Shown in pieces: positions 1,192 through 16,377 of a DNA stretch of 16,377 nucleotides; position 1 is the first letter of the stretch; each line of letters opens with the position of its first letter. A program made the translations under genes and the position numbers. The notes beneath the pieces were generated by a model, which was not told the origin of the DNA, searched no databases, and saw only the letters and a list, made by a program, of their open reading frames with translations. The stretch comes from a virus (taxonomy: Duplodnaviria > Heunggongvirae > Uroviricota > Caudoviricetes): the IMG/VR virus record IMGVR_UViG_2713896900_000010; one strand, written 5' to 3'.

Positions 1192-1193
1192 TG

Positions 1194-1799
1194 ATGTGGC
1201 TAAAATATATCGCGCCTATGATTATTTTCGTTCTTTTCCCGCTTAACGCGTCTGAACCACCACAAGCCTCTCTGGCATGGAGAAATGAATTGATTCGTAC
1301 CGCCCGAGAAGTCTGGGGACTGAACGCTCCGGTGGCTGACTTTGCCGGGCAATTACACCAGGAGTCCGCCTGGCAGCCAATGGTACGTTCCCCCGTTGGC
1401 GCACAAGGTATGGCGCAATTTATGCCTGCCACAGCGACATGGATAAGCCAACTGTATCCACAGCTACATGAAAACAAACCGTATAACCCAACCTGGGCAA
1501 TCCGGGCGTTGGTACAGTACGACCAGCATTTATGGAACAACATCTCTGCAAAAAATGATTGTCAACGTATGGCGTTTACTCTAAGCGCCTATAACGGTGG
1601 TCAGGGTTGGATTAACCGGGATAAAAAACTGGCGACAACAAAAGGGTTAAATGCCGCCATCTGGTTTGGTCATGTTGAGCAAGTCAACGCCGGGCGCAGC
1701 GCCGCAAACTGGCGAGAAAATCGTCACTATCCGAAGATGATTCTCTATCAACACGCCGCCCGCTACTTACTCTGGGGACAGGCAAGCTGTCTTCACTAA
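1194..1799 (+). CDS. Endolysin, soluble lytic transglycosylase (SLT domain) with N-terminal signal peptide or SAR domain (201 aa)
   Basis: Contains hallmark SLT motifs (catalytic-Glu context LHQESAWQP; GMAQFMPATA; AYNGG). The ORF track extends it to 1095, but the ATG at 1194 is coupled to the upstream stop, has AGGG upstream, and is followed by a hydrophobic N-terminus (MWLKYIAPMIIFVLFPLNA|SEPP). Confidence 0.8.
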   Translation: MWLKYIAPMIIFVLFPLNASEPPQASLAWRNELIRTAREVWGLNAPVADFAGQLHQESAWQPMVRSPVGAQGMAQFMPATATWISQLYPQLHENKPYNPTWAIRALVQYDQHLWNNISAKNDCQRMAFTLSAYNGGQGWINRDKKLATTKGLNAAIWFGHVEQVNAGRSAANWRENRHYPKMILYQHAARYLLWGQASCLH

Positions 1800-1811
1800 T
1801 CAGAGGGGCCG

Positions 1812-2126
1812 ATGAAACTCAGTATCGATTTTTGGGAAGTGATCTCCTTTATGCTTTCATTCGTTGGATTAATGTTTGCTGCCGGAAAATTGCTGTTAGC
1901 GCAAATTGAAAAAAGACTTAATGAGCGTTTTGAGTCCCTGGAAAATGCCCGCAGGGAATCAGAAACAAGCTGGTCGAAACTGGAAAGAGAATTTCTCGAA
2001 TTTCGTGCCGAACTTCCACTGTATTATGTCCGCAGAGAGGATTATCTTCGTGGACAAGCAGTATTAGAAGCAAAGCTGGATGCCTTATATAGCAAAATAG
2101 AGTTATTACAACGTGGCAGTTATTAA
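1812..2126 (+). CDS. Lysis-cassette accessory protein; N-terminal transmembrane anchor plus coiled coil (i-spanin-like or releasin-like), 104 aa
   Basis: GAGGGG RBS 4-9 nt upstream; one N-terminal hydrophobic helix (VISFMLSFVGLMFAAGKLLL) followed by a charged heptad-like region; position immediately after the endolysin. Function is an inference. Confidence 0.45.
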   Translation: MKLSIDFWEVISFMLSFVGLMFAAGKLLLAQIEKRLNERFESLENARRESETSWSKLEREFLEFRAELPLYYVRREDYLRGQAVLEAKLDALYSKIELLQRGSY

Positions 2127-2130
2127 ATAC

Positions 2131-2165
2131 ATCCCCACCTTTACGTAAGTGTGGGGATTTTTTAT
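2131..2165 (+). terminator. Rho-independent terminator after the lysis cassette
   Basis: Inverted repeat ATCCCCAC (2131-2138) / GTGGGGAT (2151-2158) followed by a run of six T (2158-2163), 5 nt after the stop codon of the 1812-2126 gene. Confidence 0.6.
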
Positions 2166-2272
2166 AACCATTCAATTTTTTCTCTAAATCACATTAAAAG
2201 ATTCTTCACTCTCACTGCTTCAGAATACATTTCAACGATAACGAAGTGAGCGGTAATTAAGGTACACCTCAT

Positions 2273-2728
2273 ATGAAAATTTTATCTGTAATGAATTATG
2301 TCGTGGTCAGATTACGTGATCGGCATCCTGAAATGGACATATTCATTTCATCTACGGATGCCCAAAAATATATTCCACAGACACAACAGATTACGGTGAT
2401 TATTAATTATAGCGGTTCTGTCTTCACCACGCCCGAAAGTAGTGATGCCATTGTACAACAGCAAATACTCCGCTTAACCGCCACCGTTATTGTTGGCAAA
2501 AATTGTGATGCGTTAAACGCACTTGATCACATACGCAGCGCATTGGGAGGCCTTCAGCCTCCTGATTGCGATCATCTTATTTGGCTTGAAAAAGAAATTA
2601 ATACGGGTGAGAGCGACGGTTTCTGCCGCTACATCCTGGAAATGGCGACCAGCTCGCTGTTTATCGCTGAACAGGACAGCACGGATCTTCCCCTGCTTAC
2701 TGAAGTTAATTACGAGGAAACTGAATGA
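2273..2728 (+). CDS. Hypothetical protein at the head-proximal end of the tail operon (151 aa); possible tail completion / sheath terminator-type protein
   Basis: ATG with AAGG upstream; first gene after the terminator; stop overlaps the next start (ATGA); occupies the position held by small tail-completion genes upstream of the sheath in Mu-type clusters. No motif recognised. Confidence 0.45.
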   Translation: MKILSVMNYVVVRLRDRHPEMDIFISSTDAQKYIPQTQQITVIINYSGSVFTTPESSDAIVQQQILRLTATVIVGKNCDALNALDHIRSALGGLQPPDCDHLIWLEKEINTGESDGFCRYILEMATSSLFIAEQDSTDLPLLTEVNYEETE

Positions 2729-2922
2729 AATATATCTACAACGGTCCGGCAAGCGGCGTCACCCTTGCCGACGGTCAAGAAATCTTATTATGGCCGAACA
2801 GTGAAATTGATCTGCCAGAAGACAATGAGTGGGTTATGACCATGATTGCCCGAAATCACTTGATTCTCATCATTCCCCAGGAAGAACAAAATAACGTAGA
2901 GGAAATTGTACATGGCAGCTAA
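2725..2922 (+). CDS. Small hypothetical protein (65 aa), translationally coupled between the upstream ORF and the sheath gene
   Basis: GAGGAAA RBS, ATGA overlap with the upstream stop, and its own stop overlaps the sheath start region. No recognisable motif. Confidence 0.4.
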   Translation: MKYIYNGPASGVTLADGQEILLWPNSEIDLPEDNEWVMTMIARNHLILIIPQEEQNNVEEIVHGS

Positions 2923-4333
2923 TTATCTGCACGGTGTAGAAACCATTGAAATTGAAACCGGCCCGCGTCCGGTAAAAGCAGTAAAATCTGCTGTAATCGC
3001 TTTAATCGGTACCGCTCCCTGTGGCCCGGTAAACCAACCGACGCTGTGCCTTTCTGAAAGTGACGCGGCACAGTTTGGATCGACTCAGGCTAACTTTACG
3101 ATCCCGCAGGCGCTGAAGGCGATTTATGATCACGGTGCCGGTACAGTGGTGGTAATTAATGTGCTGGATCCAGTAAAACATGGACTACACATTACCAATG
3201 AAACCATTACGTTCAATAGTGACGATAAAGCTAAATTAACTCATCCGGGGGTAAGTTCGGTAACGCTAAGAGCAAGTATCAGTTCCACTACATACAAAAA
3301 TACATCATACAGCGTTAATGCCGCTGACGGCGTTATTACCCGTACAGGAACTGAAATTGCGGCAGGAGCAAAGGTTTACGCGACTTATACCTATGTTGAC
3401 CCTACAAAGGTCACCGCAGCCGATATTATCGGGGCCGTTAATACCGCAGGCGATCGCACGGGGATGAGGCTCCTTCAGGACACTTATAACTTGTATGGTT
3501 TCTACGCCAAAATTCTGCTGGCACCCGTTTTTTGTACGCAAAAATCAGTGACTACCGAGCTGATTGCACAAGCGGAAAAACTCGGTGCGATTACCTACAT
3601 TGATGCCCCAATTGGGACTACATTCCAGCAGGTATTGGCTGGACGCGGTTCGCAAGGCGCAATCAACTTCAATACCAGCTCTGATCGTGCACGTTTATGC
3701 TACCCACACGTCAAAGTTTACGATGGCATCACTAACCAGGAAATTCTTGAACCTCTCTCTTCGCGCGCTGCCGGGCTACGTGCCAAAGTAGACCTCGAAA
3801 AAGGTTTCTGGTGGAGCAACTCAAACCAGGAAATTCAGGGTATTACCGGTATCGAACGTTCGCTTTCCGCAATGATTGATGATCCACAAAGCGAAGTGAA
3901 TCAGCTCAACGAAAACGGTATTACCACTATTTTCAATAGTTATGGTTCTGGTCTGCGCCTGTGGGGCAACCGCACAGCGGCATGGCCAACCGTGACTCAT
4001 ATGCGTAACTTTGAAAACGTTCGCCGGACAGGCGATGTAATTAATGAGTCAATCCGTTATTTCAGTCAACAGTATATTGATATGCCGATCAATCAGGCAC
4101 TGATTGACGCGCTGACCGAATCGGTAAATACCTGGGGCCGAAAACTGATTGCCGACGGCGCACTGCTTGGCTTTGAGTGCTGGTACGATCCGGCGCGAAA
4201 TTCACCGGCTGAACTCAGTGCCGGGCATTTATTGCTCAGCTATAAATTTACCCCACCGCCGCCGCTGGAACGTCTGACGTTTGAAACTGAAATTACCTCT
4301 GAATATTTAGTCTCTCTGGAGAGCAATCGCTAA
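2912..4333 (+). CDS. Contractile tail sheath protein (Mu L / P2 FI-like), about 473 aa
   Basis: Size and position immediately upstream of the tube gene; overall sequence character typical of myovirus sheath proteins. Preferred start is the ATG at 2912 (GAGGAAA 7 nt upstream) rather than the TTG at 2906 reported by the ORF track. Confidence 0.85.
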   Translation: MAANYLHGVETIEIETGPRPVKAVKSAVIALIGTAPCGPVNQPTLCLSESDAAQFGSTQANFTIPQALKAIYDHGAGTVVVINVLDPVKHGLHITNETITFNSDDKAKLTHPGVSSVTLRASISSTTYKNTSYSVNAADGVITRTGTEIAAGAKVYATYTYVDPTKVTAADIIGAVNTAGDRTGMRLLQDTYNLYGFYAKILLAPVFCTQKSVTTELIAQAEKLGAITYIDAPIGTTFQQVLAGRGSQGAINFNTSSDRARLCYPHVKVYDGITNQEILEPLSSRAAGLRAKVDLEKGFWWSNSNQEIQGITGIERSLSAMIDDPQSEVNQLNENGITTIFNSYGSGLRLWGNRTAAWPTVTHMRNFENVRRTGDVINESIRYFSQQYIDMPINQALIDALTESVNTWGRKLIADGALLGFECWYDPARNSPAELSAGHLLLSYKFTPPPPLERLTFETEITSEYLVSLESNR

Positions 4334-4857
4334 TGGCTGGAAAAATTCAAATTAACCGTATTACCAACGCCAATATTTATCTCGATGGTAATAATCTTTT
4401 AGGCCGTGCAACAGAAATTAAATTGCCAGATGTCAGTTTAATTATGCAGGAACATAAAGCACTGGGCATGGTGGGTAAAATAGAACTCCCGGCTGGTTTC
4501 GATAAACTGGAGGGGGAAATTAAATGGAACTCCTTTTACCAGGACGTAATGCGTAAAACGGCAAACCCGTGGCAGGCTGTAGCATTACAGTGTCGCTCCA
4601 GTATCGATTGTTATAACTCTCAGGGGAAAGCGAATCAATTAGCGTTAGTCACACATTTAACCGTGATGTTTAAAAAAAATCCACTGGGCACATTTAAACA
4701 GAATGAAAACCCGGAATTCAGCAGCGCCTTTGGCTGCACTTATATTAAACAAGTAGTCGATGGTGAAACGCTGCTTGAACTGGATTATATGGCGAATATT
4801 TTCCGCGTTAACGGCGTGGATCAATTAAGTACCTATCGCAATAACATCGGTGGCTAA
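4333..4857 (+). CDS. Tail tube protein (Mu M / P2 FII-like), 174 aa
   Basis: TAATG stop/start overlap with the sheath gene; size and position canonical for a tube protein following the sheath. Confidence 0.8.
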   Translation: MAGKIQINRITNANIYLDGNNLLGRATEIKLPDVSLIMQEHKALGMVGKIELPAGFDKLEGEIKWNSFYQDVMRKTANPWQAVALQCRSSIDCYNSQGKANQLALVTHLTVMFKKNPLGTFKQNENPEFSSAFGCTYIKQVVDGETLLELDYMANIFRVNGVDQLSTYRNNIGG

Positions 4858-4861
4858 GTTA

Positions 4862-4881
4862 TTCGGGGCTACGGCCCCGAA
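4862..4881 (+). other. Intercistronic stem-loop between the tube and chaperone genes
   Basis: Perfect 8 bp GC-rich stem TTCGGGGC / GCCCCGAA with a 4 nt loop (TACG), 5 nt after the tube stop codon; no following U-tract, so more likely an mRNA-stability or attenuation element than a full terminator. Confidence 0.5.
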
Positions 4882-4907
4882 CTCCGAAAAATAAATAAGG
4901 ATACAAA

Positions 4908-5225
4908 ATGAAAGAGCATTATATCTTACAGTTTCCCTTTACGTCGGCAGCAGGAAATAATATCGACACGCTACAATTACGTCGCCTGAAAGTCAAAGAT
5001 ATGCGTAATGCACGCCGGGTCAGCGAAAAGCCGGAAGAATGGGATGAACCGCTAATGGCAGCGATGACCGGGCTGGTACCAGAAGATTTAGCTGAAATGG
5101 ATTTGCTGGATTACCAGGCGTTGCAGAAACGATTTCAATCCATGCTTACCGTGGCTACAGAATCCCCCCTTGCTATGGCAGGCAATGGCGCTACTGGCGA
5201 GATGGTTTCGCTTTCCACCCAGTGA
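4908..5225 (+). CDS. Tail assembly chaperone, P2 gpE-like (105 aa)
   Basis: AAGGAT RBS; size and position between tube and tape measure; residue pattern resembles P2 gpE as I recall it. A possible frameshift extension is described in the findings. Confidence 0.6.
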   Translation: MKEHYILQFPFTSAAGNNIDTLQLRRLKVKDMRNARRVSEKPEEWDEPLMAAMTGLVPEDLAEMDLLDYQALQKRFQSMLTVATESPLAMAGNGATGEMVSLSTQ

Positions 5226-5300
5226 GATTGACTCGCTCACGATAGATGACTTTAGTCACTGGCTGGATGAAGCCAGCGCTCAAATAAAAATCGAATATGA

Positions 5301-5323
5301 CTCGCAGACCTGATGTCTGCGAG
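5301..5323 (+). other. Stem-loop in the chaperone to tape-measure spacer
   Basis: Perfect 9 bp inverted repeat CTCGCAGAC / GTCTGCGAG with a 5 nt loop (CTGAT), followed by TTCTTC; the loop contains the stop codon of the +1-frame extension ORF. Confidence 0.45.
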
Positions 5324-5413
5324 TTCTTCAAAGCTCGCCAGGTTTATTTCTTCCCAGCCCATTTTTCAGAAAACTAACCAGCGGGCCATCACCAATCTAT
5401 AAGAGAAACAATT

Positions 5414-7789
5414 TTGGCCAACGATATTATTACCCAGCTTCAGACGCGTAATGAGACGTTGACGCAGGCAATAGCCCGTTACGGCTCACTCAACGCCAGA
5501 ACATTGTTAGCACTCTCTTCTCAGCAAGCGGCAGTAATCAAACTAACGCAGCAACTTGCCGATTCCGCTCTCCGCCTGGAGGAAAATAGCCGAAACCGCG
5601 CTGATCTGATGGAGAAAACCCAAACATTTGCCGGGCAATTTAGCAAAGTATTCAATGTTGAAATCCTTGACTGGAAGTTGCCGTATGAGTTTCAGGACAA
5701 CATGGTCAATTTGGCGACCAAAGGTGGGATGAATGATACAACCCGCGAGACACTCAGCCTTAATCTGCGCGACTGGAGCATGGATTTTAACCAGCAGCAG
5801 ACCACCTTACAGAACGCAGCCCAGGTGCTAATCGAAGGTAATTTGTCGTCGATGCAGGATCTCAACCGTTATATGCCGGAGATCGCCAAAGCGGCCACCA
5901 CCACGCGCGAAAGTGCTGAAACATGGGCGAATGCCGCGCTCGCGACTCATGATCGACTGAATATTGCGCCAGAAAATTTCCACGCCGCGCAAAACATGAT
6001 GTACGGCATTAGCAAAAACGGTGGGCCTACCGTTGCCGGGCAAACACAGTGGATAGACAAATTTGCAGTTAAAACTGGCGCACAGGGTTTAGAAGGTATG
6101 GCTGAACTGACCGCCACAATGCAGATCGCAATGAAAAATGGTGCCAGCGCCAGTGTGGCGGCGGAGAATTTCGACCACTTTCTGCAAACCATCTTTTCGA
6201 AAAAAACCGATAACTGGTTCGTCAGCCAGGGCGTCGATCTGCAAGGCTCTCTGCTTGAACATCAGCAAAACGGCATGGGTGTTAGCGAAGCCATGATTCA
6301 TATCGTGCAAACGCAACTTGAGAAGATGAATCCGGCGATCCTCGACACCTTCAAACGCACCATGCAAATTGAAGATTTATCTGCTCGCAGCAACGCACTG
6401 CAATCGATAGTGACGCAATTTAATCTGGGCGAAATGTTCGGCGATGCGCAAACAGTGGAATTCCTGGCACCTGCGCTGGCGAATATGGAAGAGTATCGCC
6501 AGTTAAAAGCCTCCGCCATGCAAGACAGCGGTAAGAATCTGATTGACAACGATTTTTCTGTGCAGATGGCCTCGCCCATTGAACAAACTAAAACGTTACA
6601 ACTGGCGTTAAATGATTTATGGCTCAGCATTGGCTTGCAATTAATGCCGCTGATTGGCGAGTTGGCGCAAAGCCTTACTCCGGTGATTCGCCAGTTCAGC
6701 GCCTGGCTACGTGAACACCCGGCGCTGGTGCAAAACATTGCGAAAATCGTCGGAGCGATTTGGCTGTTTAACGGCGCACTGAATGTTTTAAAGCTGGGCG
6801 CGAACGTCATCGCCTCGCCGTTTATTCGTCTGGTCGATATCTTCCTGAAAGTCAGGGCAAGTCTGACGCTCACAGGCGCGGCAAGTAAGATGCTATCAGC
6901 GGTTAAGTCATTATATAACGGCGCAAAATGGCTAACGCAACTGCTTGGCCGTGGCCTGATTGGCGCATTGAAACTGGCAGGTCAGACCGTCTTCTGGTTG
7001 GGTAGAGTTTTATTGATGAATCCCATTGGTCTGGTCATCACCGCGATTGCGGGCGCTGCTTATCTGATCTATCGCCACTGGGAACCTATCTCCAGATTCT
7101 TTTCCGCCATCTGGCAACGTATCACCACGGCCTTTGACGGCGGCATTGCAGGGATTTGCCGGTTAATTCTCGACTGGTCGCCGCTGGAGTTGTTCTACAG
7201 CGCCTTTTCCAGTGTGATGAATTGGTTTGGTGTCGAGATGCCTGCAAGTTTTAGCGAGTTCGGCAGCAATCTTCTGGGCAGTCTGGTTGACGGCATAATG
7301 AATGCTTTCCCCGCTCTGAAAGGCATTATTGATCAGGTCAAAAACGCCTTACCGGACTGGCTAAAAACCACGATGGGTATTAGCACAGAAGGATCGGCTA
7401 CGGCTGTTACAAGCACGACGAATACCGCATCAATCTCCCCCACAACCGTTGTTCCAGGCGTTGCCGGAGCGATTTTAACGCCTCCTGTGGGCAAACAACT
7501 CGCGCCATCCAGTAAAACGACAACGTCGCCATCGACACCAGCGGCAAAAAATACAGCCGCCAAACCCGCATCGGCCTCTTTACCTGGTAAATCTGTAACC
7601 AAACCGGCGACGCTCCCCTCCCGTTCCTCTGGAAAAGTTCAGGTGAATTTTTCGCCACAAATTACCGTGCAGAGTAACGGACAAAACACCACTAAAGACA
7701 TTCAGAACGTGTTGACGATAAGTAAACGCGAACTGGAAAGAATGATTAACGACGTAATGGCGCAACAACAGCGCCGGGGGTATGCCTGA
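5414..7789 (+). CDS. Tail tape measure protein (791 aa)
   Basis: Largest gene of the cluster, directly after the chaperone; coiled-coil-rich N-terminal half, hydrophobic segments in the middle/C-terminal part, Ser/Thr/Pro/Ala-rich tract near the C-terminus. The first in-frame start after the upstream stop is a TTG at 5414 with a weak AAGAG motif upstream. Confidence 0.85.
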   Translation: MANDIITQLQTRNETLTQAIARYGSLNARTLLALSSQQAAVIKLTQQLADSALRLEENSRNRADLMEKTQTFAGQFSKVFNVEILDWKLPYEFQDNMVNLATKGGMNDTTRETLSLNLRDWSMDFNQQQTTLQNAAQVLIEGNLSSMQDLNRYMPEIAKAATTTRESAETWANAALATHDRLNIAPENFHAAQNMMYGISKNGGPTVAGQTQWIDKFAVKTGAQGLEGMAELTATMQIAMKNGASASVAAENFDHFLQTIFSKKTDNWFVSQGVDLQGSLLEHQQNGMGVSEAMIHIVQTQLEKMNPAILDTFKRTMQIEDLSARSNALQSIVTQFNLGEMFGDAQTVEFLAPALANMEEYRQLKASAMQDSGKNLIDNDFSVQMASPIEQTKTLQLALNDLWLSIGLQLMPLIGELAQSLTPVIRQFSAWLREHPALVQNIAKIVGAIWLFNGALNVLKLGANVIASPFIRLVDIFLKVRASLTLTGAASKMLSAVKSLYNGAKWLTQLLGRGLIGALKLAGQTVFWLGRVLLMNPIGLVITAIAGAAYLIYRHWEPISRFFSAIWQRITTAFDGGIAGICRLILDWSPLELFYSAFSSVMNWFGVEMPASFSEFGSNLLGSLVDGIMNAFPALKGIIDQVKNALPDWLKTTMGISTEGSATAVTSTTNTASISPTTVVPGVAGAILTPPVGKQLAPSSKTTTSPSTPAAKNTAAKPASASLPGKSVTKPATLPSRSSGKVQVNFSPQITVQSNGQNTTKDIQNVLTISKRELERMINDVMAQQQRRGYA

Positions 7790-8742
7790 TGTATGCCGTT
7801 TTAGGAGAGATTGAATTTAAGGTTGTCACATTCTGGGACGGCTTTAAAAGCACAATGGGCGTGGACTACGCCACACATGCCCGTATAGAAGGCAAACCCG
7901 GCGTGCAGTTTATTGGCGATAAGCTGGATATGCTGGCACTGGAATTTTCCTTGCACAGCCAGTTTTGCCAACCCACAACAGAGCTGAATCGACTGCGTGA
8001 AGCCATGCTTACCCACAAAGCGATGGCTCTGGTGTTTGGCAATGGCGATTATCGCGGCTGGTTTGTGATTACGGAGCTAACCGCCACCCACCAGCACACC
8101 GATCCCTGGGGCAATGTGATTGCTCAAAGCGGAACAATGTCGCTCCAGGAGTACACCGGCGCTCCTAAAAATCCACTCTTGCCCCCGGCAATTACTACCC
8201 AAGACCCGAATATTGACGAAAAGGCGAGCGATTTTCCAGACATGGTGGAGTCCTGGTTTGATCAGATATTGAACGCCATTGAAGAAGGTATGCGTAAGGC
8301 CAAAGAGATGCTCGATGAGCTGACTCAAGCCATTGAAGATATTAAAAAAACGGTGGCAAAAGTGAAAGCACTGGTTAAAGAGGCCAAAGCGTTAAAAGAA
8401 AAGTGTGAAAAGATAATTACGTCGTTGAAAAAGACTATCGACGCCATCGAAACCCTGTTTAAACAGCCCATGGATCTGCAAACGCTGGCAGGACTCCCAA
8501 AAGCGTTGTCGGCGCAGATTAACGCTTTACTGGGTAACATGCCAGGTATCCGGGACTGCGCCAAAGACGCCAGCACGCTGGTTGACCATGCTCAGGCGCT
8601 TTTCGACGACATTACCAACGACATCGCTGAAGCGACGTTCGATAAAGCCGCAACGTTGGTTGAGCAGGCACGAACAACGGTACAACAAACCACTCCCGCA
8701 GTGAGCCAGCTTGCTGCCGCGACCATTACGAGGAGCTGGTGA
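7789..8742 (+). CDS. Tail protein with gpU / Mu N-like N-terminal domain and long alpha-helical C-terminal extension (317 aa)
   Basis: ATGA overlap with the tape-measure stop; N-terminal ~120 aa follows the pattern of P2 gpU-type tail proteins; C-terminal half is Ala/Lys/Glu-rich and heptad-like; occupies the Mu gene N position. Confidence 0.55.
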   Translation: MYAVLGEIEFKVVTFWDGFKSTMGVDYATHARIEGKPGVQFIGDKLDMLALEFSLHSQFCQPTTELNRLREAMLTHKAMALVFGNGDYRGWFVITELTATHQHTDPWGNVIAQSGTMSLQEYTGAPKNPLLPPAITTQDPNIDEKASDFPDMVESWFDQILNAIEEGMRKAKEMLDELTQAIEDIKKTVAKVKALVKEAKALKEKCEKIITSLKKTIDAIETLFKQPMDLQTLAGLPKALSAQINALLGNMPGIRDCAKDASTLVDHAQALFDDITNDIAEATFDKAATLVEQARTTVQQTTPAVSQLAAATITRSW

Positions 8743-8951
8743 TGCGATACCTTGAACATATCACCACCGACGGCGAACGCTGGGATAATCTGGCATGGCA
8801 TTACTACGGCGATGCGCTGGCTTATGAACGCATCATCGCCGCCAATCCACATGTCGCCATTTACCCGGTACTGCCTTCCGGTATTCAACTCATTATTCCG
8901 GTCATTTCCGTCAACAAAACCTTATCGGAGATACCACCATGGCTGAGATAA
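8742..8951 (+). CDS. Tail protein X-like (LysM-like, P2 gpX family), 69 aa
   Basis: ATG at 8742 overlapping the upstream stop, AGGAG 6 nt upstream; the motif LEHITTDGERWDNLAWHYYGD...IIAANPHV resembles the gpX LysM-like signature; sits just before the gpD-like gene as in P2/Mu-type clusters. Confidence 0.65.
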   Translation: MRYLEHITTDGERWDNLAWHYYGDALAYERIIAANPHVAIYPVLPSGIQLIIPVISVNKTLSEIPPWLR

Positions 8952-9979
8952 GCGTATCTGGTGGCGTCTTTGCCACACTCGCGCCCATTTTTACCCTTTG
9001 GTATGGACATAAAGATATCACTTATGACATCACGCCCTATGTCACCAGCATCAGTTACCACGACAGCATCAAAAACGAGTCAGATACCATCGCCATTACA
9101 CTGGATGACACCGATGGACGTTGGATAAAAGAGTGGTATCCCGGCAAAGGCGATACGCTGGCGCTGCATATGGGTTATCAGGGGGAGACGCTCCTCGATT
9201 GCGGTCAGTATATTATTGATAAAATTGATATTTCAGCACCACCTTCCACGGTAAATATTGATGGCATTGCCACTTCCGTCAATCAGGCGCTGCGTACCCG
9301 TAACAGTCAGGGCTTTGAAGAAACGACGCTTTCGGCCATCGCCAGTCGTATCGCGCAAACTCACGGTCTGAAGCTGGTGGGCAAAATCGAGCCGCTGGCG
9401 ATTGACCGGGTGACACAGTACGGCGAAACCGATGTTGGATTTCTCAAGCGTCTGGCCAGCGAATATGGCTATGCCGTGAAAGTGACGACAAAAGAGCTAA
9501 TTTTTTCACATCTGCCGACACTACGCTGCCTGGCGCCAGTGAAAACCATCGACCGCAAAGAGGTTTCGCACTTTACCTTCAAAGACACCATTAATCGCAT
9601 CTACAAGAACGCCACCGTACAGCATCAAAATAGTAAGAAAAAAGAACTGGTTATCTACACTCACGACAGCCAGCAAAAACCGTCAGCCCGTGGAGTCGGC
9701 ACCAGTGCCGACACGTTGAAACTCAACAGCCGGGCGACGGATGTTGGCGCGGCACAGGCAAAGGCCAACGCTGCACTCGACAGCCACAACGAATATCAGC
9801 AAACCGGAACACTCAGGATGATGGGCTGCCCGGAACTGACAACAGGCAATAAAATCGAACTCATTGATTTTGGTATTCTTTCTGGACAATGGCTGATTGA
9901 TAAATCTACTCACAGTTTTGTGCGCAGCGGCTATACCACTGAAATCGACGTTTCGCGCGGGCCAGCAACCAGCCAGTAA
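8939..9979 (+). CDS. Baseplate hub protein, P2 gpD / Mu P-like (346 aa)
   Basis: Size, position after gpU/gpX-like genes, GGAG RBS; overall pattern consistent with late control gene D family tail proteins. Confidence 0.8.
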   Translation: MAEISVSGGVFATLAPIFTLWYGHKDITYDITPYVTSISYHDSIKNESDTIAITLDDTDGRWIKEWYPGKGDTLALHMGYQGETLLDCGQYIIDKIDISAPPSTVNIDGIATSVNQALRTRNSQGFEETTLSAIASRIAQTHGLKLVGKIEPLAIDRVTQYGETDVGFLKRLASEYGYAVKVTTKELIFSHLPTLRCLAPVKTIDRKEVSHFTFKDTINRIYKNATVQHQNSKKKELVIYTHDSQQKPSARGVGTSADTLKLNSRATDVGAAQAKANAALDSHNEYQQTGTLRMMGCPELTTGNKIELIDFGILSGQWLIDKSTHSFVRSGYTTEIDVSRGPATSQ

Positions 9980-9988
9980 GGAGGCACT

Positions 9989-10648
9989 ATGAAGGGAGTA
10001 ACCCGGCAAACGGGGATTATCAGCGATATTGACGAAACCAGCGTTCGGGTGCGAGTCACACTGCCAGAGTGCGACAATCTGAAGAGTAACTGGCTTGCGG
10101 TACTTCAACGTAATTCCCAGGACAATAAAGACTACTGGCTACCGGATATGGGTGAGCAGGTGGAAGTTCTGCTGGACGACAACGGCGAAGATGGCGTGGT
10201 ACTTGGGGCCGTTTATTCTACGGTTGACACCGCGCCTGTGGCCTCGCGAGATAAACGTTACGTCCAGTTTTCTGATGGCGCAGCGTTTGAATATGACCGC
10301 AGCACACACCAGCTTACGATTAACGGCGGTATTGAGAAAATCGTGATTGAGGTTATTGACCGTACTAACCTGACATCACCCAACGTTGAGGTTAAAGCCC
10401 AACAAGTCACCGTGACTTCCGATACCGTCGATATTAAAGCGGCGACAGTGACGGTAGATGCGCCCATGAGCACCTTTACTGGTAACGTCACGGTAATGAA
10501 AAAACTCACCTGGCTGGGTGGCATGGCAGGAAGTGGAGGCATCGGTAACGCCGCCACGATAACTGGCAATGTCAACGTGATTGGTAACGTTCAGGCCAGC
10601 GGCACATTGCAGGATAGCGGTGGTAACTCAAATCACCATTCACACTAG
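9989..10648 (+). CDS. Baseplate central spike, P2 gpV / Mu gp45-like (219 aa)
   Basis: Strong AAGGAGG RBS; N-terminal OB-fold-like region followed by repetitive beta-strand-rich Val/Thr segment (VTVTSDTVDIKAATVTVDAP...) and a C-terminal His cluster (NHHSH) typical of spike apexes. Confidence 0.8.
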   Translation: MKGVTRQTGIISDIDETSVRVRVTLPECDNLKSNWLAVLQRNSQDNKDYWLPDMGEQVEVLLDDNGEDGVVLGAVYSTVDTAPVASRDKRYVQFSDGAAFEYDRSTHQLTINGGIEKIVIEVIDRTNLTSPNVEVKAQQVTVTSDTVDIKAATVTVDAPMSTFTGNVTVMKKLTWLGGMAGSGGIGNAATITGNVNVIGNVQASGTLQDSGGNSNHHSH

Positions 10649-10653
10649 CTTTT

Positions 10654-10684
10654 AACCCGCCTGATGGCGGGTTTTCTCTTTTTA
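10654..10684 (+). terminator. Rho-independent terminator inside the baseplate module
   Basis: Stem AACCCGCC (10654-10661) / GGCGGGTT (10666-10673), loop TGAT, followed by TTCTCTTTTT; 6 nt after the spike gene stop. Confidence 0.7.
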
Positions 10685-10746
10685 ATCAATCAGTTTTCTA
10701 AATCGCTTTAATATCCCCACTGTCCGTTCAGGGCGAAAATAAGCAC

Positions 10747-11106
10747 ATGAACACAAAAACACGCCCCTCAACGCTGCACTGGCAACCCGCCTTGCAGCGG
10801 CCTGAAGAATACGTCTGCGGACTGGATGATATTCACCAGGCAATACACATCATTCTGCGCACGCCGCGCGGCAGTGATCCCCACAGACCGCTGTTTGGCA
10901 GCAACTTGTGGCACTACATCGATTACCCCATCGAGCGGGCAATCCCGCATGTGGTACGGGAGTCGATGGAAGCCATCCGCCAGTGGGAACCGCGATGTCG
11001 GTTGCTGAAGGTAGCACCGATAATCGACGGTGAACATCTGACGTTACGTGTGCAATGGCGCGCCGCTGACGGCGTAATCAACTCAACGGAGGTGTTATGG
11101 CGATAG
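10747..11106 (+). CDS. Baseplate wedge protein, gpW / gp25-like (119 aa)
   Basis: Size and position before the J-like gene; product overlaps the downstream start by 10 nt. Confidence 0.75.
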   Translation: MNTKTRPSTLHWQPALQRPEEYVCGLDDIHQAIHIILRTPRGSDPHRPLFGSNLWHYIDYPIERAIPHVVRESMEAIRQWEPRCRLLKVAPIIDGEHLTLRVQWRAADGVINSTEVLWR

Positions 11107-12212
11107 CCGAACCCAATTTTATTGACCGCGATCCTGCGCAAATTACCAGCGAGATGATTGCGCAATACGAAGATGCCAGCGGTAAAAAACTCTATCCGGC
11201 ACAGGCCGAACGGTTACTCATCGACCTGTTTGCCTATCGTGAAAACCTTGTGCGCATCGCCATTCAGGAAGCGGCGAAACAAAACCTGGTCGCGTATTCC
11301 CGCGCACCAATGTTGGATTATTTAGGGGAGCTGGTGGGTGTTCACCGTTTACCTGCGCAACCGGCAAAAACGACGTTGCAGTTTTCGGTCGTCAGTGCGT
11401 ATACCAGCAATATCCTGATTCCCCAGGGGACGCGGGCCAGTGCCTCTGACAGCGTGATGTTCGCCACCGATGAAGATGTTCTGCTTCCGGCCAGGAGTTT
11501 GCATATCGCCGTTCCGGCCACCAGCCTCGCAGCAGGTGAACAGGGCAATGGCTGGCAGCCTGCACAGATTAGCGCCCTTGTTGACAGGATCGGTTATTAC
11601 GATATCAACGTGACTAATCTGACTCCCACAACCGGCGGTTGTGGTGAAGAGAACGATGATGCACTACGCCAGCGTATACAACTGGCGCCAGAAAGCTTCA
11701 GTAATGCCGGCAGCTATGGCGCATATCGCTTTCATACACTTTCGGTTAGCCAGTCAATTATTGACGTTGCAGTACTGGGGCCAGATGAAGGGTTGCCAGA
11801 AGGCTGCGTCGAGCTCTACCCGCTAACCCTGAATGGTCTGCCGGGAACCGAGCTACTCGCGCAAATTGAACAAGAAGTGAGTAAAGAGAAAAAACGTCCG
11901 CTGACTGACAAAGTAAGTGCGAAATGTGCTCTTAGGGTGCCGTATGAAATTCGTGCGCAGCTAACGCTGTTTACCACCGCCGATCAGGAGACAACACTGG
12001 CTGCGGCGCGTAAAGCGATTAGCCTCTGGACGCAACAGCGGCAGAAACATCTGGGGCAGGACATTGTGCCAAACCAGATAATCAAAGTGTTACAAGTCGA
12101 TGGTGTCTATGACGTTGTGCTGAACATGCCTACAAAACGTATTTTGCAGGCGCATGAATGGGCGGAATGCACTGTAATAGACGTCACGATTGCCGGAGTC
12201 AGCGATGGATAA
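11097..12212 (+). CDS. Baseplate J-like protein (P2 gpJ / Mu gp47-like), 371 aa
   Basis: GGAGGTG RBS; size and position canonical for the baseplate J family; overlaps the downstream start. Confidence 0.8.
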   Translation: MAIAEPNFIDRDPAQITSEMIAQYEDASGKKLYPAQAERLLIDLFAYRENLVRIAIQEAAKQNLVAYSRAPMLDYLGELVGVHRLPAQPAKTTLQFSVVSAYTSNILIPQGTRASASDSVMFATDEDVLLPARSLHIAVPATSLAAGEQGNGWQPAQISALVDRIGYYDINVTNLTPTTGGCGEENDDALRQRIQLAPESFSNAGSYGAYRFHTLSVSQSIIDVAVLGPDEGLPEGCVELYPLTLNGLPGTELLAQIEQEVSKEKKRPLTDKVSAKCALRVPYEIRAQLTLFTTADQETTLAAARKAISLWTQQRQKHLGQDIVPNQIIKVLQVDGVYDVVLNMPTKRILQAHEWAECTVIDVTIAGVSDG

Positions 12213-12837
12213 ATTGCTGCCACCGCCGCCGCTTGCCAGCGATGAGCGTTTTTCAACTCTGGCAAATATCGCCGCCGAACGTTTTGCGCAACTCGATCTG
12301 ACGGCATTAATGATATACCTGGTCGACCTGGTTGATGCTTCGGCATTACCTGCCCTTGCAGAACAATTTCACGTTCAGGGGCTGGAAGGTTGGTTATTTA
12401 CTACTGATGAACAAGAGAAGCGTGAGTTAATTAAGCGAGCCATTGAGTTACATAAATATAAAGGAACAGTTTGGGCGGTACGGCGAGTACTGGAAATACT
12501 CTCATTGCCTGGAACTATTGCCGAATGGTTTGAATATGGCGGGAAAGCTTATTTTTTTAAGGTTGATATAGAACTGGTGGATAAAGGCATGGATGAAAAC
12601 CTTTTCAATGAGTTAGTTGAACTCATTCATGAATATAAAAACACACGTTCAAAACTGGAAGCATTAATCGTCTGGATCATTAACCAAAGTGCTATCCCTG
12701 TTATTAGCTGTGCGCTTTATGGGGGTGAACTGACGACGCTTTTACCTTTCCAGATACGGGAAGTACAACAAAACACAACAATCTTTTACGGAACAGGGCA
12801 ATGGAGCCTTGAAATTACATCTATTTACCCGGAGTAA
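12190..12837 (+). CDS. Baseplate/tail protein I-like (P2 gpI / Mu gp48-like), 215 aa
   Basis: Follows the J-like gene with overlapping coupling and precedes the tail fiber gene, the conserved J-I-H order. Confidence 0.7.
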   Translation: MPESAMDKLLPPPPLASDERFSTLANIAAERFAQLDLTALMIYLVDLVDASALPALAEQFHVQGLEGWLFTTDEQEKRELIKRAIELHKYKGTVWAVRRVLEILSLPGTIAEWFEYGGKAYFFKVDIELVDKGMDENLFNELVELIHEYKNTRSKLEALIVWIINQSAIPVISCALYGGELTTLLPFQIREVQQNTTIFYGTGQWSLEITSIYPE

Positions 12838-12839
12838 TT

Positions 12840-14498
12840 ATGGATAATGAGTTTTATACCCTCCTGACCGACAGGGGGATGGCAAAAATTGCCAGTGCTC
12901 TTGCGGATAAAAAACAACTACATCTGCAAAAGATGGCCGTTGGAGACGGCGGTGGGCAATATTACGAACCCTCGGCGAGTCAAGCAAAATTACGTCATGA
13001 AGTATGGCGTGGTGAGTTAAATACATTAACAGTTGCACCCAGTAATCCTAACTGGTTAATTGCGGAACTTGTACTGCCCGAAAATATCGGCGGCTGGTAT
13101 GTACGTGAAGTCGGCGTTTTTGATACTGACGGCGAACTTATTGCTATCGGTAAATTCCCAGAATCGTATAAACCGCTATTACCCGGCGGCAGCGGTAAGC
13201 AAGTTTGCATTCGTCTCATTATGGAAGTTTCCAACACGACTGCGGTAACACTCACCGTTGATCCCAGTATTGTACTGGCAACACGTGATTATGTTGATTC
13301 ACAACTGGATAAACATGCACGTTCGACTAATCATCCTGATGCTACGTTAATGCAAAAAGGCTTTACGCAGTTGAGTAACGCCACTGACAGTGATGACGAA
13401 ACTAAAGCGGCTACGTCAAAAGCGGTAAAAGCGGCGATGATTGAGGCACGAAACCATCGTCATACCTGGAGTCAAATTACTGATATTCCAGATGGTACGC
13501 TGACTCAAAAAGGAATTGTGAAGCTAAATAACGCGACCAATAGCACCAGCACGACGGAGGCAGCGACACCGAGCGCGGTTAAGGCGGCGTATGACCTGGC
13601 AAATGGTAAAGCTGCAGGCAGTCATACGCATCCCTGGGGGCAGATTACGGGTATTCAGGATGGCACCCTGACGCAAAAAGGGATTGTGAAGCTGAATAAT
13701 GCGACGGACAGCAACAGCACGACGGAGGCAGCCACGCCGAGTGCGGTTAAGGCGGCAATGGATAAGGCTAATGCTGCAGCTCCGGCTAATCATACTCACA
13801 CTAGTTTTTATACTACAAATGGAACATTTACAGTTCCTGATGGCGTAACTACATTATTTGTGGAAGTTATGGGCGGCGGCGGTGGTGGTGCCGGAGGAGC
13901 ACAATCATCATATTATGAAGCATGTGGTGGCAATACAGGTGAATTGCTCGTTGGTTACTTAAACGTGGAACCAAGCCAGCATTTTTCAGTAAAGGTTGGG
14001 GCTGGAGGTAATGGAGGTCCATTTTGGAATAATCCACCTGTTTCACAAGTAAAGTATTCATCGGATAACACAGAGAAAACACAAAAAAGCTTTGATGGTG
14101 GTGACTCTTCATTTTCTAATATGATTGCCAAAGGAGGTCATGGGGGATATAACATTTATCACTTTAACACTACGCAGCCTTGTATAAAATTCATTGACCA
14201 TCCAAATACTTATGCACCTGGCGCAATACGGTTATATGCAGAATTTTATCCTGGCAAGAATGGTGAAAATTCCATATATGGAAAAGGAGGGAGCGCTGGC
14301 ACTGTTATTACAGAATATCTGGATAATGGTGGAAGTAAGGCAATAATGACACATCCGACACCAGCAATAGGCTATGGTTCTGGAGGAGCGGGAGGATCTT
14401 ATTTGCCTCCTTTTGAATATGACAATAATGAATTAACAAACTTAGGCAATACTAGCGGAACAAAAGGTGCCTCTGGTTTCGTAAAAATATCATGGTAA
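12840..14498 (+). CDS. Tail fiber protein (552 aa) with conserved N-terminal domain, tandem shaft repeats and Gly-rich low-GC C-terminal receptor-binding region
   Basis: N-terminus (MDNEFYTLLTDRGMAKIASALA...WLIAELVLPENIGGWYVREVGVFDTDGELIAIGKFP) is the conserved baseplate-attachment domain of Mu S / P2 H / lambda Stf-type fibers; three tandem repeats with the motif TLTQKGIVKLNNAT...AATPSAVKAA; C-terminal ~230 aa rich in Gly motifs. Confidence 0.85.
   Translation: MDNEFYTLLTDRGMAKIASALADKKQLHLQKMAVGDGGGQYYEPSASQAKLRHEVWRGELNTLTVAPSNPNWLIAELVLPENIGGWYVREVGVFDTDGELIAIGKFPESYKPLLPGGSGKQVCIRLIMEVSNTTAVTLTVDPSIVLATRDYVDSQLDKHARSTNHPDATLMQKGFTQLSNATDSDDETKAATSKAVKAAMIEARNHRHTWSQITDIPDGTLTQKGIVKLNNATNSTSTTEAATPSAVKAAYDLANGKAAGSHTHPWGQITGIQDGTLTQKGIVKLNNATDSNSTTEAATPSAVKAAMDKANAAAPANHTHTSFYTTNGTFTVPDGVTTLFVEVMGGGGGGAGGAQSSYYEACGGNTGELLVGYLNVEPSQHFSVKVGAGGNGGPFWNNPPVSQVKYSSDNTEKTQKSFDGGDSSFSNMIAKGGHGGYNIYHFNTTQPCIKFIDHPNTYAPGAIRLYAEFYPGKNGENSIYGKGGSAGTVITEYLDNGGSKAIMTHPTPAIGYGSGGAGGSYLPPFEYDNNELTNLGNTSGTKGASGFVKISW
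13314..13790 (+). repeat. Three tandem ~55 aa / ~165 bp repeats within the tail fiber shaft
   Basis: Protein repeats ending at HRHTW / HTHPW / HTHT; the DNA of units 2 and 3 (about 13501-13590 versus 13669-13758) is roughly 85% identical. Confidence 0.6.
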
Positions 14499-14504
14499 TT
14501 AAAA

Positions 14505-15119
14505 ATGACAAAATATGCATGTTTTGATCCTGAAACATTTGTTGTTTTGGACTGGTTCGATACAGAACGTTACAACTATCCCAAAGTAGAACATTTAGTT
14601 GAAATAACTGATCAGCAATGGCAGATATATGCAAGAGATAATATTCCAACTTGGATTAACTGTGAAGATTTATCCTTCATTTCTATGCCACCACCAGATA
14701 AATTTCACAAACTGAAAAAAGGAGAATGGATAGTTGATACAGATTCAATACTTAAATTTATTTCAGAAATAAAAGAAGATATAATAAGAAGAGTAAAATC
14801 CAAACGAGATTACATCACAACCGATTACATCATCCTCAACGGCCATCACTTCCACAGTGATACAAATAGCCGAATCCAACAACTCTCACTCACAAAAATG
14901 GGAGCCGAAAAACAAATTCCGCCAGGTTTAATGTGGAAAACTAAAAATAACGGTCTGATTGAGTTAACCAATGAAATCGCCGCCCAGTTTGAATCCGTCA
15001 CCATGGCTCACGATATGCGCCTGTTTGCCAACGCCCAGCGCCATATTACGGCGGTGGAAGCTCTGGGCGATATTCAGGCGGTGCTCGACTACGACTACTC
15101 CACAGGCTGGCAACCATGA
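14505..15119 (+). CDS. Tail fiber assembly protein (Tfa/U-like chaperone), 204 aa
   Basis: Immediately downstream of the fiber gene; C-terminal half (higher GC) resembles the conserved Tfa domain ending ...DYDYSTGWQP; N-terminal half is low-GC like the fiber C-terminus. Confidence 0.7.
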   Translation: MTKYACFDPETFVVLDWFDTERYNYPKVEHLVEITDQQWQIYARDNIPTWINCEDLSFISMPPPDKFHKLKKGEWIVDTDSILKFISEIKEDIIRRVKSKRDYITTDYIILNGHHFHSDTNSRIQQLSLTKMGAEKQIPPGLMWKTKNNGLIELTNEIAAQFESVTMAHDMRLFANAQRHITAVEALGDIQAVLDYDYSTGWQP

Positions 15120-15571
15120 GTAAAACCACTGTCTGGCTCGCTTGCTATAAAGGCAGAACAGAGCACCGAGGTATTGCGCAACTAGCTGACTGGCTTACCC
15201 GTAAAATCACACGCGGCAGTTATTCCCACTGCGAGTTAGCAGTGGTACATGGTGAAAAAAATTACCTTTGCTACTCTGCATCACTGCGCGATCGCGGTGT
15301 ACGCGGAAAGATAATGCCACTACCGTCAGATAAGTGGGATATGCTGCCGCTCCAGGCTAGCTTTCAGGATGTGGAAGCTTTTTTCCATAAACATAATGGC
15401 AAAAAATACGACTGGCGCGGAGCCTTAGGAATTATCACTGGCAATAAAGAACAGCGCAATCGTCTGTTTTGCAGTGAATTTTGCGCCGAGTTTCTGCAGT
15501 TAAAAGAGAGTTGGCGCTATTCCCCAAACCATTTGTATGCTTTAGTCAGCAGTTGGCAATATCAGCCGTAA
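15116..15571 (+). CDS. Hypothetical Cys/His-rich protein (151 aa), translationally coupled to tfa; possibly a permuted papain-fold (NlpC/P60-like, YaeF/YiiX-type) enzyme
   Basis: ATGA overlap with the tfa stop; the motifs SHCELAVVHG and LFCSEFCAEF put a His upstream of a C-terminal Cys as in permuted NlpC/P60 amidases. Family assignment is tentative and from recall. Confidence 0.45.
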   Translation: MSKTTVWLACYKGRTEHRGIAQLADWLTRKITRGSYSHCELAVVHGEKNYLCYSASLRDRGVRGKIMPLPSDKWDMLPLQASFQDVEAFFHKHNGKKYDWRGALGIITGNKEQRNRLFCSEFCAEFLQLKESWRYSPNHLYALVSSWQYQP

Positions 15572-15576
15572 AATAA

Positions 15577-15597
15577 CGCCGGGCTTTACGCCCGGCG
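15577..15597. terminator. Bidirectional terminator-like hairpin between convergent genes
   Basis: Stem CGCCGGGC (15577-15584) / GCCCGGCG (15590-15597), loop TTTAC; the minus-strand side is followed by a U-rich tract (TTATTTTAC); the stop codon of the minus-strand gene lies in the loop. Confidence 0.55.
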
Positions 15598-16377
15598 CAT
15601 TACCGTTTGATACAACACCCCATCCAGCTCACTGGCATCTCCGTCCCTGCTATCCGGTAACATGGGAGGGAGCTCACCGCGCACCAGTTCCGTACTAATA
15701 AACACATGCAACAAAGGACGACGCGGACCATATTCCGCTTCACCCGCACGCTGTTTACATTCCAGCAACTCGTCTATTTCTGCGCGTAACGGCGCATCAA
15801 GTCCGCTTCCCGCCAGTAATTCGGCAAACCGCATTGGCGGTACACCTTTACCCGCTTCAACCCAACGCACAGCCAGCAGTGGCCGCAGCACGTAAAAGTA
15901 TTTTTTCAGCCAAACTACGTTGCCCTGCAAATAACCGCGAAAATTTTTCCGCGCCATCGAATAATAATGCCAACGCGCGCGCAGCGGAGAAAACCACTTC
16001 GGCACCATTGCCTTAAGCGCCGTTATCGTTTCTTCATCTTGTTGATAGACCACCGGAGAATCCAGCCATTCAATCAGCGTCGGATTCGCGTCTTTCAGTA
16101 ATCCCAGCGCCTTGCGCCACTCCCAGCCTGAAACATCTAACTCGTCGTCAATAGGCAACTCAATAACATCGCGCGGCGCCTCCACCCGCAGATACCATTC
16201 CGGCGGATGAACATACAAGAACCGCACATCGTAGTCGCTGTCGGGTGAGGCAAATCCCCAACCGCGACTCCCCGATTCACTCGCATACAACACTTTCACA
16301 TCATACCGCCGTTCAATTTCTTTTAACTGCTGCGATACCCGTTCGTGCATCGCAACACTGACTCCATTTAATGGCAT
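15586..16377 (-). CDS. Pol-beta-superfamily nucleotidyltransferase (263 aa)
   Basis: N-terminal active-site signature GS-x10-DxD (ESGSRGWGFASPDSDYDV) typical of the polymerase-beta nucleotidyltransferase fold, followed by a ~170 aa helical C-terminal domain. Its start codon coincides with the window edge, so the true N-terminus and upstream partner genes cannot be verified. Confidence 0.65.
   Translation of the reverse strand: MPLNGVSVAMHERVSQQLKEIERRYDVKVLYASESGSRGWGFASPDSDYDVRFLYVHPPEWYLRVEAPRDVIELPIDDELDVSGWEWRKALGLLKDANPTLIEWLDSPVVYQQDEETITALKAMVPKWFSPLRARWHYYSMARKNFRGYLQGNVVWLKKYFYVLRPLLAVRWVEAGKGVPPMRFAELLAGSGLDAPLRAEIDELLECKQRAGEAEYGPRRPLLHVFISTELVRGELPPMLPDSRDGDASELDGVLYQTVMRRA

Follow-up and report, generated by a model that had tools for sequence, protein, structure and literature searches.

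The window considered here is a stretch of 16,377 nucleotides, held in IMG/VR as the Caudoviricetes record IMGVR_UViG_2713896900_000010, which carries a cassette of phage tail genes and, at its far edge, a gene for a nucleotidyltransferase (NTase) of the Pol-beta type that runs towards them. The presence of such a gene at the border of a phage-like element raises the question of whether it is defence or toxin cargo of the element or a resident of the chromosome beside it. An earlier note, made from the sequence alone, had left room for toxins of the MNT/AbiEii type, signalling enzymes of anti-phage systems and RNA-repair proteins, and had regarded the location as a typical cargo or defence-island position. 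The defence-cargo reading is not supported by the present analysis; the gene product belongs to a known RNA-repair family, RlaP, and the gene to a reduced rtc operon of the Band-7 type. Very probably, it encodes an RNA 3'-terminal nucleotidyltransferase of the RlaP family and stands last in a chromosomally inherited RNA-repair operon of the RtcR/sigma54 type and the Band-7 kind, now reduced. The evidence consists of the family and the catalytic residues of the protein, its slipin partner, the promoter and leader of the pair, the orthologous loci with a divergent RtcR gene and the order leader-slipin-RtcB-RlaP, purifying selection and the independence of the gene from the cassette.

The gene, hereafter rlaP, is complete (15586-16377, minus strand; 263 codons and a TAA stop in the list of open reading frames (ORFs) and its translation), its ATG being the final three bases of the window. 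The catalytic motif ESGSR-x7-DSDYD (G36-S37, D46, D48, D50) is encoded by codons 34-50 at positions 16228-16278 of the same strand. The GS-x10-DxD signature that had been read in a 263-residue Pol-beta nucleotidyltransferase is indeed present, as E34-S35-G36-S37-R38 followed by D46-S47-D48-Y49-D50 (GS-x10-DYD), the additional Asp at D46 also yielding a GS-x8-DSD reading. A profile search for the exact family, which had been proposed as a check, gave Pfam PF10127 (RlaP) with an E-value of 9.5e-93 and a score of 310.9 bits (curated gathering cut-off 23), residues 10-256 of 263 lying on model positions 1-248 of 249; the motif together with a match of this strength over residues 10-256 places the observation far beyond chance. 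PHROG 14344, annotated as 'nucleotidyltransferase', also matches the protein (E 1e-114), and PF10127 comprises 5069 family clusters (50% identity) at E-values of 1e-3 or lower. In an alignment of 19 RlaP sequences reaching down to 39% identity (A2), residues E34, S35, G36, S37, R38, D46, S47, D48 and D50 are invariant, as are some thirty further positions, all of which the window protein has. Three strictly conserved catalytic aspartates have been described for RlaP (bioRxiv 10.64898/2025.12.29.696909), and D70, E73 and D81, which are likewise invariant in A2, are candidates for the third carboxylate or metal ligand. The protein is thus a full-length member of the RlaP family with intact catalytic residues.

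The characterised RlaP enzymes are PfRlaP of Pseudomonas fluorescens and PaRlaP of P. aeruginosa (Carruthers, Fatma & Huang, bioRxiv 10.64898/2025.12.29.696909). In vitro, both attach one or two nucleoside monophosphates (NMPs) to the 3'-OH ends of RNA, with a preference for Mn2+, and are inactive on DNA, protein and 3'-phosphate ends; in a mimic of cleaved tRNA, the nicked end of the anticodon loop is favoured, and the aminoacylation of a tRNA short of one nucleotide can be restored by RlaP acting before ligation (same source). Burroughs & Aravind (2016; NAR 44:8525), as cited in bioRxiv 10.64898/2025.12.29.696909 and PMC7824862, gave the family its name after the RNA ligases with which it is associated in operons, and the family together with the arrangement of Band-7, tRNA-like RNA and RtcB is quoted as a prediction of the same authors in bioRxiv 10.1101/312249 and PMC7824862. 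An RNA-ligase neighbourhood covers a part of the RlaP family and is no membership criterion of the Pfam model.

An AlphaFold2 model of the window protein (mean predicted local distance difference test score 91.7) contains strands and helices in residues 1-113, forming an alpha/beta NTase domain, followed by an all-helical region (115-261) with its last helix at 248-261. The crystal structure of PfRlaP is described as an N-terminal NTase domain and a C-terminal helical domain with the terminal helix packing back (bioRxiv 10.64898/2025.12.29.696909), and the predicted two-domain layout agrees with this published description, by which alone the two were compared. A search of the PDB with the RlaP sequence gave no match.

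The note had supposed that operon partners would lie outside the window, and one is found immediately beyond position 16377. The window derives from Escherichia albertii. The exact RlaP protein occurs on contigs of this species (including CP117647.1), whose slipin is 100% identical to E. albertii proteins; this Band_7/SPFH slipin (375 residues; PF01145, E 2e-26) is encoded on the same strand, 5 nucleotides upstream of rlaP and just outside the window, the Shine-Dalgarno sequence of rlaP (AAGGA) overlapping the slipin stop codon. Past slipin in E. albertii there follow a 528-nucleotide spacer, yjbD, rluF and the sor operon. The slipin (positions 8868-9995 of the E. albertii locus, L007) has an N-terminal extension of about 145 residues ahead of the SPFH domain and, by eye, no obvious hydrophobic membrane anchor in its sequence, which is unusual among bacterial SPFH proteins.

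The third of the proposed functions, RNA repair, is borne out by the protein family and by the orthologous loci, which carry RtcR and RtcB. In Klebsiella aerogenes, Cronobacter and Kosakonia, the slot between yjbD and lysC holds a divergent rtcR followed by slipin-rtcB-rlaP. The slot is without rtcB, but with slipin-rlaP, in Citrobacter, K. oxytoca (both with RtcR), Superficieibacter, Mangrovibacter and Lonsdalea, and without slipin in Leclercia, Pectobacterium and Erwinia; slipin-rlaP alone remains in E. coli and E. albertii, the leader and slipin are cleanly deleted in E. ruysiae with rlaP left behind the old promoter region, and nothing of the module is present in K-12 or in about 70% of E. 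coli as a whole. The E. ruysiae deletion (L014, 5690-6010) spans the leader RNA and slipin except its last codons, so that an intact rlaP (89% identity) stands directly behind the upstream repeats and a weakened sigma54 promoter (TGGCCT...CTCGCA). The comparison of these loci indicates that Escherichia has lost RtcR and RtcB from the yjbD-lysC locus. The complete arrangement is also present in Burkholderia, Delftia, Chitiniphilus, Pseudomonas, Morganella and Providencia, rlaP abuts Hen1 in Chitinimonas, and among 80 species-representative loci RtcB, RtcR and slipin were found within 6 kb of rlaP in 42, 37 and 22, respectively.

The distribution of the genes was examined in 5426 complete E. coli genomes. 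The rlaP gene was identified in 1629 of these and slipin in 1631, the RlaP ORF being intact (at least 80% coverage) in about 1626, whereas cassette sequence was found in 196-197; rlaP therefore belongs to the chromosomal flank and not to the cassette. A gene of the zeta-toxin family occupies the position of the cassette in 1434 genomes, and these together with the 197 cassette-bearing ones add up to 1631, the slipin count, so that each E. coli genome with slipin-rlaP has one or the other. The order in cassette-free E. coli is lysC, zeta-family gene, RlaP, slipin and yjbD, and the ORF at the end of the cassette (15116-15571) is confined to the approximately 196 E. coli genomes with the cassette. 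Between E. albertii and E. coli, the synonymous divergence (dS) is 0.39-0.53 for rlaP, 0.55 for rluF and 0.67 for yjbD, and the ratio of nonsynonymous to synonymous divergence (dN/dS) is 0.09-0.12 for RlaP against its E. coli orthologues and 0.04-0.065 for slipin. The rlaP gene is under purifying selection and, given a dS near those of rluF and yjbD and the low dN/dS, is vertically inherited chromosomal backbone. The supposed cargo position is contradicted by these results, the gene lying at the same yjbD-lysC locus in about 1430 cassette-free E. coli genomes and in several other genera, and the synonymous divergence of rlaP matching that of its housekeeping neighbours. The note had held that a conserved chromosomal gene at the same locus in strains lacking the cassette, with no partner genes beside it, would speak against its proposal; the gene is conserved in cassette-free strains as described, while an adjacent partner, slipin, does exist. 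The tail cassette is an unrelated insertion between rlaP and lysC, and a functional link between the cassette and the NTase was rejected, being contradicted by the distribution in E. coli.

The limit of the variable slot can be placed with the help of a GC-rich hairpin at 15576-15598, detected by a terminator scan and by folding. On the minus strand the scan reports the hairpin GCGCCGGGCGTAAAGCCCGGCGT followed by TATTTTAC; the stem has 8-9 base pairs (9 with a terminal G-U) and a loop of 5 nucleotides, with UAUUUUAC after it on the minus strand, and the folding energies are -27.3 kcal/mol (z -4.9) on the minus strand and -22.2 kcal/mol (z -4.0) on the plus strand. It is common to rlaP and the last gene of the tail cassette and probably acts as a bidirectional terminator for both convergent transcripts. 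The convergence claimed earlier was confirmed, the minus-strand rlaP facing the plus-strand ORF at 15116-15571. That a shared hairpin alone separates the two holds in so far as one strong hairpin is the only feature between them; it is not purely intergenic, for it overlaps the 3' end of rlaP: the loop contains the stop codon of the gene (15586-15588), and the 3' arm is made up of its last three codons (R-R-A). Loci of the tail type and the zeta-type loci of E. coli share the 3' end of rlaP as well as the hairpin and about 10 further nucleotides, and then diverge. The hairpin is thus part of the constant side, that of rlaP, and the variable slot opens directly past it, the cassette boundary being placed about 10 nucleotides beyond.

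The reduced operon has kept its control region. Over the spacer of about 530 nucleotides upstream of slipin, E. albertii and E. coli have 97% identity, far above the nearby synonymous sites, and a sigma54 promoter, TGGCACGCTTCTCGCA, is retained upstream of slipin in Escherichia along with TTATC/GATAA repeats resembling upstream activating sequences (UAS). The promoter and the repeats align with the rtcR-proximal region of the loci that contain rtcR, a gene that is absent from the yjbD-lysC locus of Escherichia. Of the 5426 E. coli genomes, 5425 have an rtcR of the K-12 type, which adjoins rtcBA at the malT-glpR locus, and its near-universality makes both the trans-activation of slipin-rlaP by the K-12-type RtcR and the supply of RtcB and RtcA in trans plausible.

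Between the sigma54 promoter and slipin lies a structured leader RNA (L007, 8575-8720 in E. albertii CP117647.1, some 2.2-2.3 kb beyond window position 16377), with homologous regions in L001-L004, L009-L012, L015-L019, L025, L050, L056 and L068. It has five helices with 32 predicted pairs, and across 12 genera 92.7% of the cells are paired compared with 36-50% when the partner is slid; compensatory changes occur in 24 of the 32 pairs, and none of 500 shuffles reaches the observed values. The enterobacterial leader contains a hairpin resembling a tRNA T-arm, GGGTTCGAtTCCC. Folding of single sequences makes the leader no more stable than shuffled sequence (z -0.65), the structure being seen by comparative analysis only, and the Escherichia leader gave neither a match in Rfam 15 at permissive thresholds, where YrlA of P. 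fluorescens was detected as a positive control, nor a tRNA call by ARAGORN. The divergence of slipin (dS 0.21-0.27; L007, 8868-9995) and of the 97% identical leader is low beside the 0.4-0.7 of rlaP and the flanking housekeeping genes, which suggests either that the RNA and the 5' region of slipin are under added constraint or that this segment was exchanged between the species more recently.

A covariance model of the leader finds the element in E. coli and in eight slipin loci of beta- and gammaproteobacteria (E 5e-8 to 0.012) and, at E below 0.05, nothing in the loci without slipin. As judged by this model, the Escherichia element is homologous to the first tRNA-like unit of the beta- and gammaproteobacterial loci, whose slipin leaders contain two such units in tandem (detected by ARAGORN and scoring 30-55 bits with the Rfam tRNA model). 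The units abut directly in L035 (3090-3214), L046 (3085-3211), L048 (2145-2289), L092 (4367-4514) and similar slipin-RtcB-RlaP loci, and their anticodons are odd, non-conserved and sometimes impossible. In L048 and L092 the two overlap by 2-3 nucleotides and therefore cannot be ordinary tRNA genes. The tandem units appear to be the tRNA associated with Band-7 ('b7a-tRNA'), a prediction of Burroughs & Aravind as quoted in bioRxiv 10.1101/312249. In the Enterobacterales, the canonical tRNA-like unit has been lost, and the 5' structured domain and the T-arm-like hairpin have been kept.

Taken together with the biochemistry of the Pseudomonas enzymes, these features suggest how the gene might function. 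RlaP would add one or two NMPs, independently of a template, to damaged RNA 3'-OH ends such as those of tRNA halves short of a nucleotide, and the addition would restore the missing nucleotide before ligation. The gene would be co-expressed with the Band-7 scaffold from the sigma54 promoter and would serve ligation of the RtcB type, by a ligase that another part of the genome provides. As Escherichia has lost the ligase and the activator encoded in cis, RlaP presumably has its partners in the RtcB/RtcA/RtcR set of the separate malT-glpR locus and shares their induction. For this orthologue we infer the activity, by analogy, as well as its regulation and its cooperation in trans.

Several observations weigh against the assignment to an RNA-repair operon working in trans. 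The ligase association, after which the family was named, is missing, since neither an RNA ligase nor RtcA nor RtcR is found at the Escherichia locus, and a search for RtcB or an ATP-grasp ligase within 10 kb of RlaP yielded none in E. albertii or E. coli. Between the RtcR of K-12 and that of the locus type the identity is only 62%, and the UAS are related but not identical. The evidence for rtcR and rtcBA in trans covers E. coli genomes, the clusters looked through for E. albertii members having given only E. coli and Shigella names, and the RNA-repair role of the family is itself proposed from in vitro data only. In addition, the absence of the module from 70% of E. coli and the deletion of slipin and the leader in E. 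ruysiae fit a decaying operon.

This last point leads to the likeliest of the rival explanations, according to which the slipin-RlaP pair of Escherichia became functionless after the loss of RtcR and RtcB and is on its way to deletion. The graded series of loci, from the full operon through those lacking RtcB, those lacking RtcR and RtcB, and E. ruysiae without slipin to K-12 and the 70% of E. coli that retain nothing, is what such decay would leave. Sequence under no constraint would scarcely have kept an intact ORF in approximately 1626 E. coli genomes, dN/dS values of 0.09-0.12 in RlaP and 0.04-0.065 in slipin, or 97% identity of E. albertii and E. coli over the upstream region of 530 nucleotides beside a dS of about 0.5-0.7 in the neighbouring genes, and E. 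ruysiae has retained RlaP and the promoter region despite the deletion of slipin. We consider a functionless remnant improbable. The retention of RlaP under purifying selection with a sigma54 promoter, albeit weakened in E. ruysiae, suggests that the enzyme is of value even where the ligase is encoded elsewhere.

A different view of that value would be that the module has acquired an activity of its own. The pair without a ligase and its leader may form a self-contained SPFH-RNA-NTase ribonucleoprotein in Escherichia, in which the 5' domain of the leader would be a new class of non-coding RNA partnering a soluble Band-7 assembly as Y RNA does Ro60, and RlaP would act on, or be guided by, the leader RNA and not be a mere accessory of RtcB; we put this forward tentatively and regard it as rather doubtful. 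A stand-alone ribonucleoprotein of Band-7, RlaP and leader RNA that tags RNA 3' ends for decay, or modifies its own tRNA-like leader, seems very unlikely. The persistence of slipin, RlaP and the structured leader together without a ligase, the conservation of the leader far above neutral sites with its strong covariation, and the keeping of slipin-RlaP in five lineages without RtcB (Citrobacter, K. oxytoca, Superficieibacter, Mangrovibacter and Lonsdalea) are compatible with it; against it, essentially all E. coli have RtcB at hand in trans, and the closest relatives adjoin RtcB.

An anti-phage or toxin NTase, whether similar to MNT/AbiEii, to the CD-NTases or to HalB of the Hailong system, and carried as cargo at the edge of the cassette or in a defence islet, is given equally little credence. 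The module is patchy in E. coli and adjoins a slot of variable content, filled by a zeta-toxin-family gene or by the tail cassette, homologues of RlaP occur in jumbo phages, and the defence NTase HalB is among the closest solved folds, all of which would suit a defence gene. The likeness to MntA/MNT and AbiEii is confined to the minimal GS...DxD motif of Pol-beta enzymes: the NCBIfam model of MntA scores 11.7 bits against a cut-off of 60 (E 0.18), RlaP has 263 residues with a large helical domain, and its neighbours are slipin and a tail-cassette ORF, with no HEPN or AbiEi partner beside it. The MNT/AbiEii-type toxin thus finds no backing in the profile or in the neighbourhood. The anti-phage signalling enzyme fares no better: PADLOC-DB 2.0, which includes the CD-NTases of cyclic-oligonucleotide-based anti-phage signalling systems (CBASS) among others and has Hailong outside its models, gave no significant match for RlaP, the best being PDC-S09 at an E-value of 0.054, and none at all for slipin, and no HEPN, effector or channel partner was identified. 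The zeta-family neighbour in E. coli matched PDC-M04B in the same database at an E-value of 8e-4 only. In the literature searched, no paper combined the terms SPFH, nucleotidyltransferase and anti-phage. The locus and its order are conserved in Enterobacteriaceae without any cassette, with a divergence resembling that of vertical descent, and it is on the RNA 3' end that the family has been demonstrated to act. A pairing of slipin and the NTase as a toxin-antitoxin system was rejected for want of any support.

Structure comparison leads to the same conclusion. The nearest solved folds found by Foldseek are generic two-domain NTases, namely ANT(4') (1KNY, 6NMK), 3C18, Hailong HalB (9DBH) and AadA. 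ANT(4') and HalB resemble the RlaP protein in that a helical domain comes after the Pol-beta NTase domain (Foldseek probability 0.96-1.0, template modelling (TM) score 0.40-0.50; for HalB, TM 0.42-0.5 and 8-14% identity), and differ from it in that the identity is 8-14% and the root-mean-square deviation 11-14 Å over the alignment, with no sequence-level relationship; their substrates are also unlike those of RlaP, the ANT enzymes acting on antibiotics and HalB oligomerising dATP. As the matches to the aminoglycoside NTases are equally good, the resemblance is that of a generic fold.

The remaining content of the window and of the alternative slot may be described briefly. Positions 1-15571 form a tail-only cassette, resembling an R-type tailocin, that fills the whole interval between lysC and rlaP and occurs in about 197 of the E. 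coli genomes at 82-88% nucleotide identity. It comprises a Mor-family activator (1-348, minus strand), a holin (904-1191) and an SLT transglycosylase (1095-1799), followed by sheath, tube, tape measure, baseplate, fibre and DUF4376 genes and the ORF of 151 residues at 15116-15571 (plus strand), the convergent neighbour of rlaP, which matches PHROG 1128 (E 1.6e-57) and gave no match in a Pfam search. No capsid, replication or integration genes were seen in positions 1-15571. The zeta-toxin-family gene of other E. coli encodes a P-loop kinase of 308 residues (PF06414, with AAA_33 and KAP matches; L002, 7035-7961, in E. coli O111:H- 11128, and also in L003 and L004) and is convergent with rlaP across the same hairpin. 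This kinase might be an RNA-end kinase partnering RlaP or, alternatively, an unrelated insertion.

The analysis removes a candidate from the list of defence genes, the NTase being chromosomal backbone beside an insertion slot. The locus documents the stepwise reduction of a Band-7-type rtc RNA-repair operon in which RlaP was kept through every intermediate stage, and ordinary E. coli strains, O104:H4 and O111 among them, offer a test of whether RlaP is of value without a ligase in cis. The conserved leader, in turn, lends itself to validation of the RNA partner predicted for Band-7.

Comparison with the known systems places the locus as follows. With PfRlaP and PaRlaP, the window protein has in common the ESGSR...DSDxD catalytic core and the predicted layout of NTase and helical domains, and it is 58-59% identical to P. 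fluorescens proteins encoded between rtcB and rtcA, in loci with the published order RtcB-RlaP-RtcA. It differs in that the E. albertii/E. coli locus is without ligase, cyclase and RtcR, the operon consisting only of slipin and RlaP, and in that the orthologue is known from its sequence. From the Band-7-type operons regulated by RtcR, the Escherichia locus is distinguished by the lack of RtcR and RtcB, and the enterobacterial leaders by that of the canonical tRNA-like unit, the 5' structured domain and one T-arm hairpin being left. It shares with them the Band-7 gene in first and RlaP in last place, the sigma54 promoter accompanied by upstream repeats, and a leader whose structure includes a hairpin like a tRNA T-arm, and the same layout with RtcR and RtcB in addition is found in Klebsiella, Cronobacter, Burkholderia, Delftia and some Pseudomonas; an SPFH protein, PaFlo8, also lies inside the rtc locus of P. 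aeruginosa, in the order rtcR-PaFlo8-rtcB (PMC13086221). The rsr-yrlBA-rtcBA operon of the Ro60/Y RNA type, found in Salmonella and Pseudomonas, has a Ro60/TROVE scaffold in place of SPFH, and the slipin leader matches neither the YrlA nor the YrlB model. The two kinds of operon have the same class of regulator, RtcR with sigma54, and the same ligase, and in P. fluorescens Ro60 (Rsr) and the Y RNAs YrlB/YrlA fill the first slot, that of slipin and its leader RNA, followed by rtcB, rlaP and rtcA.

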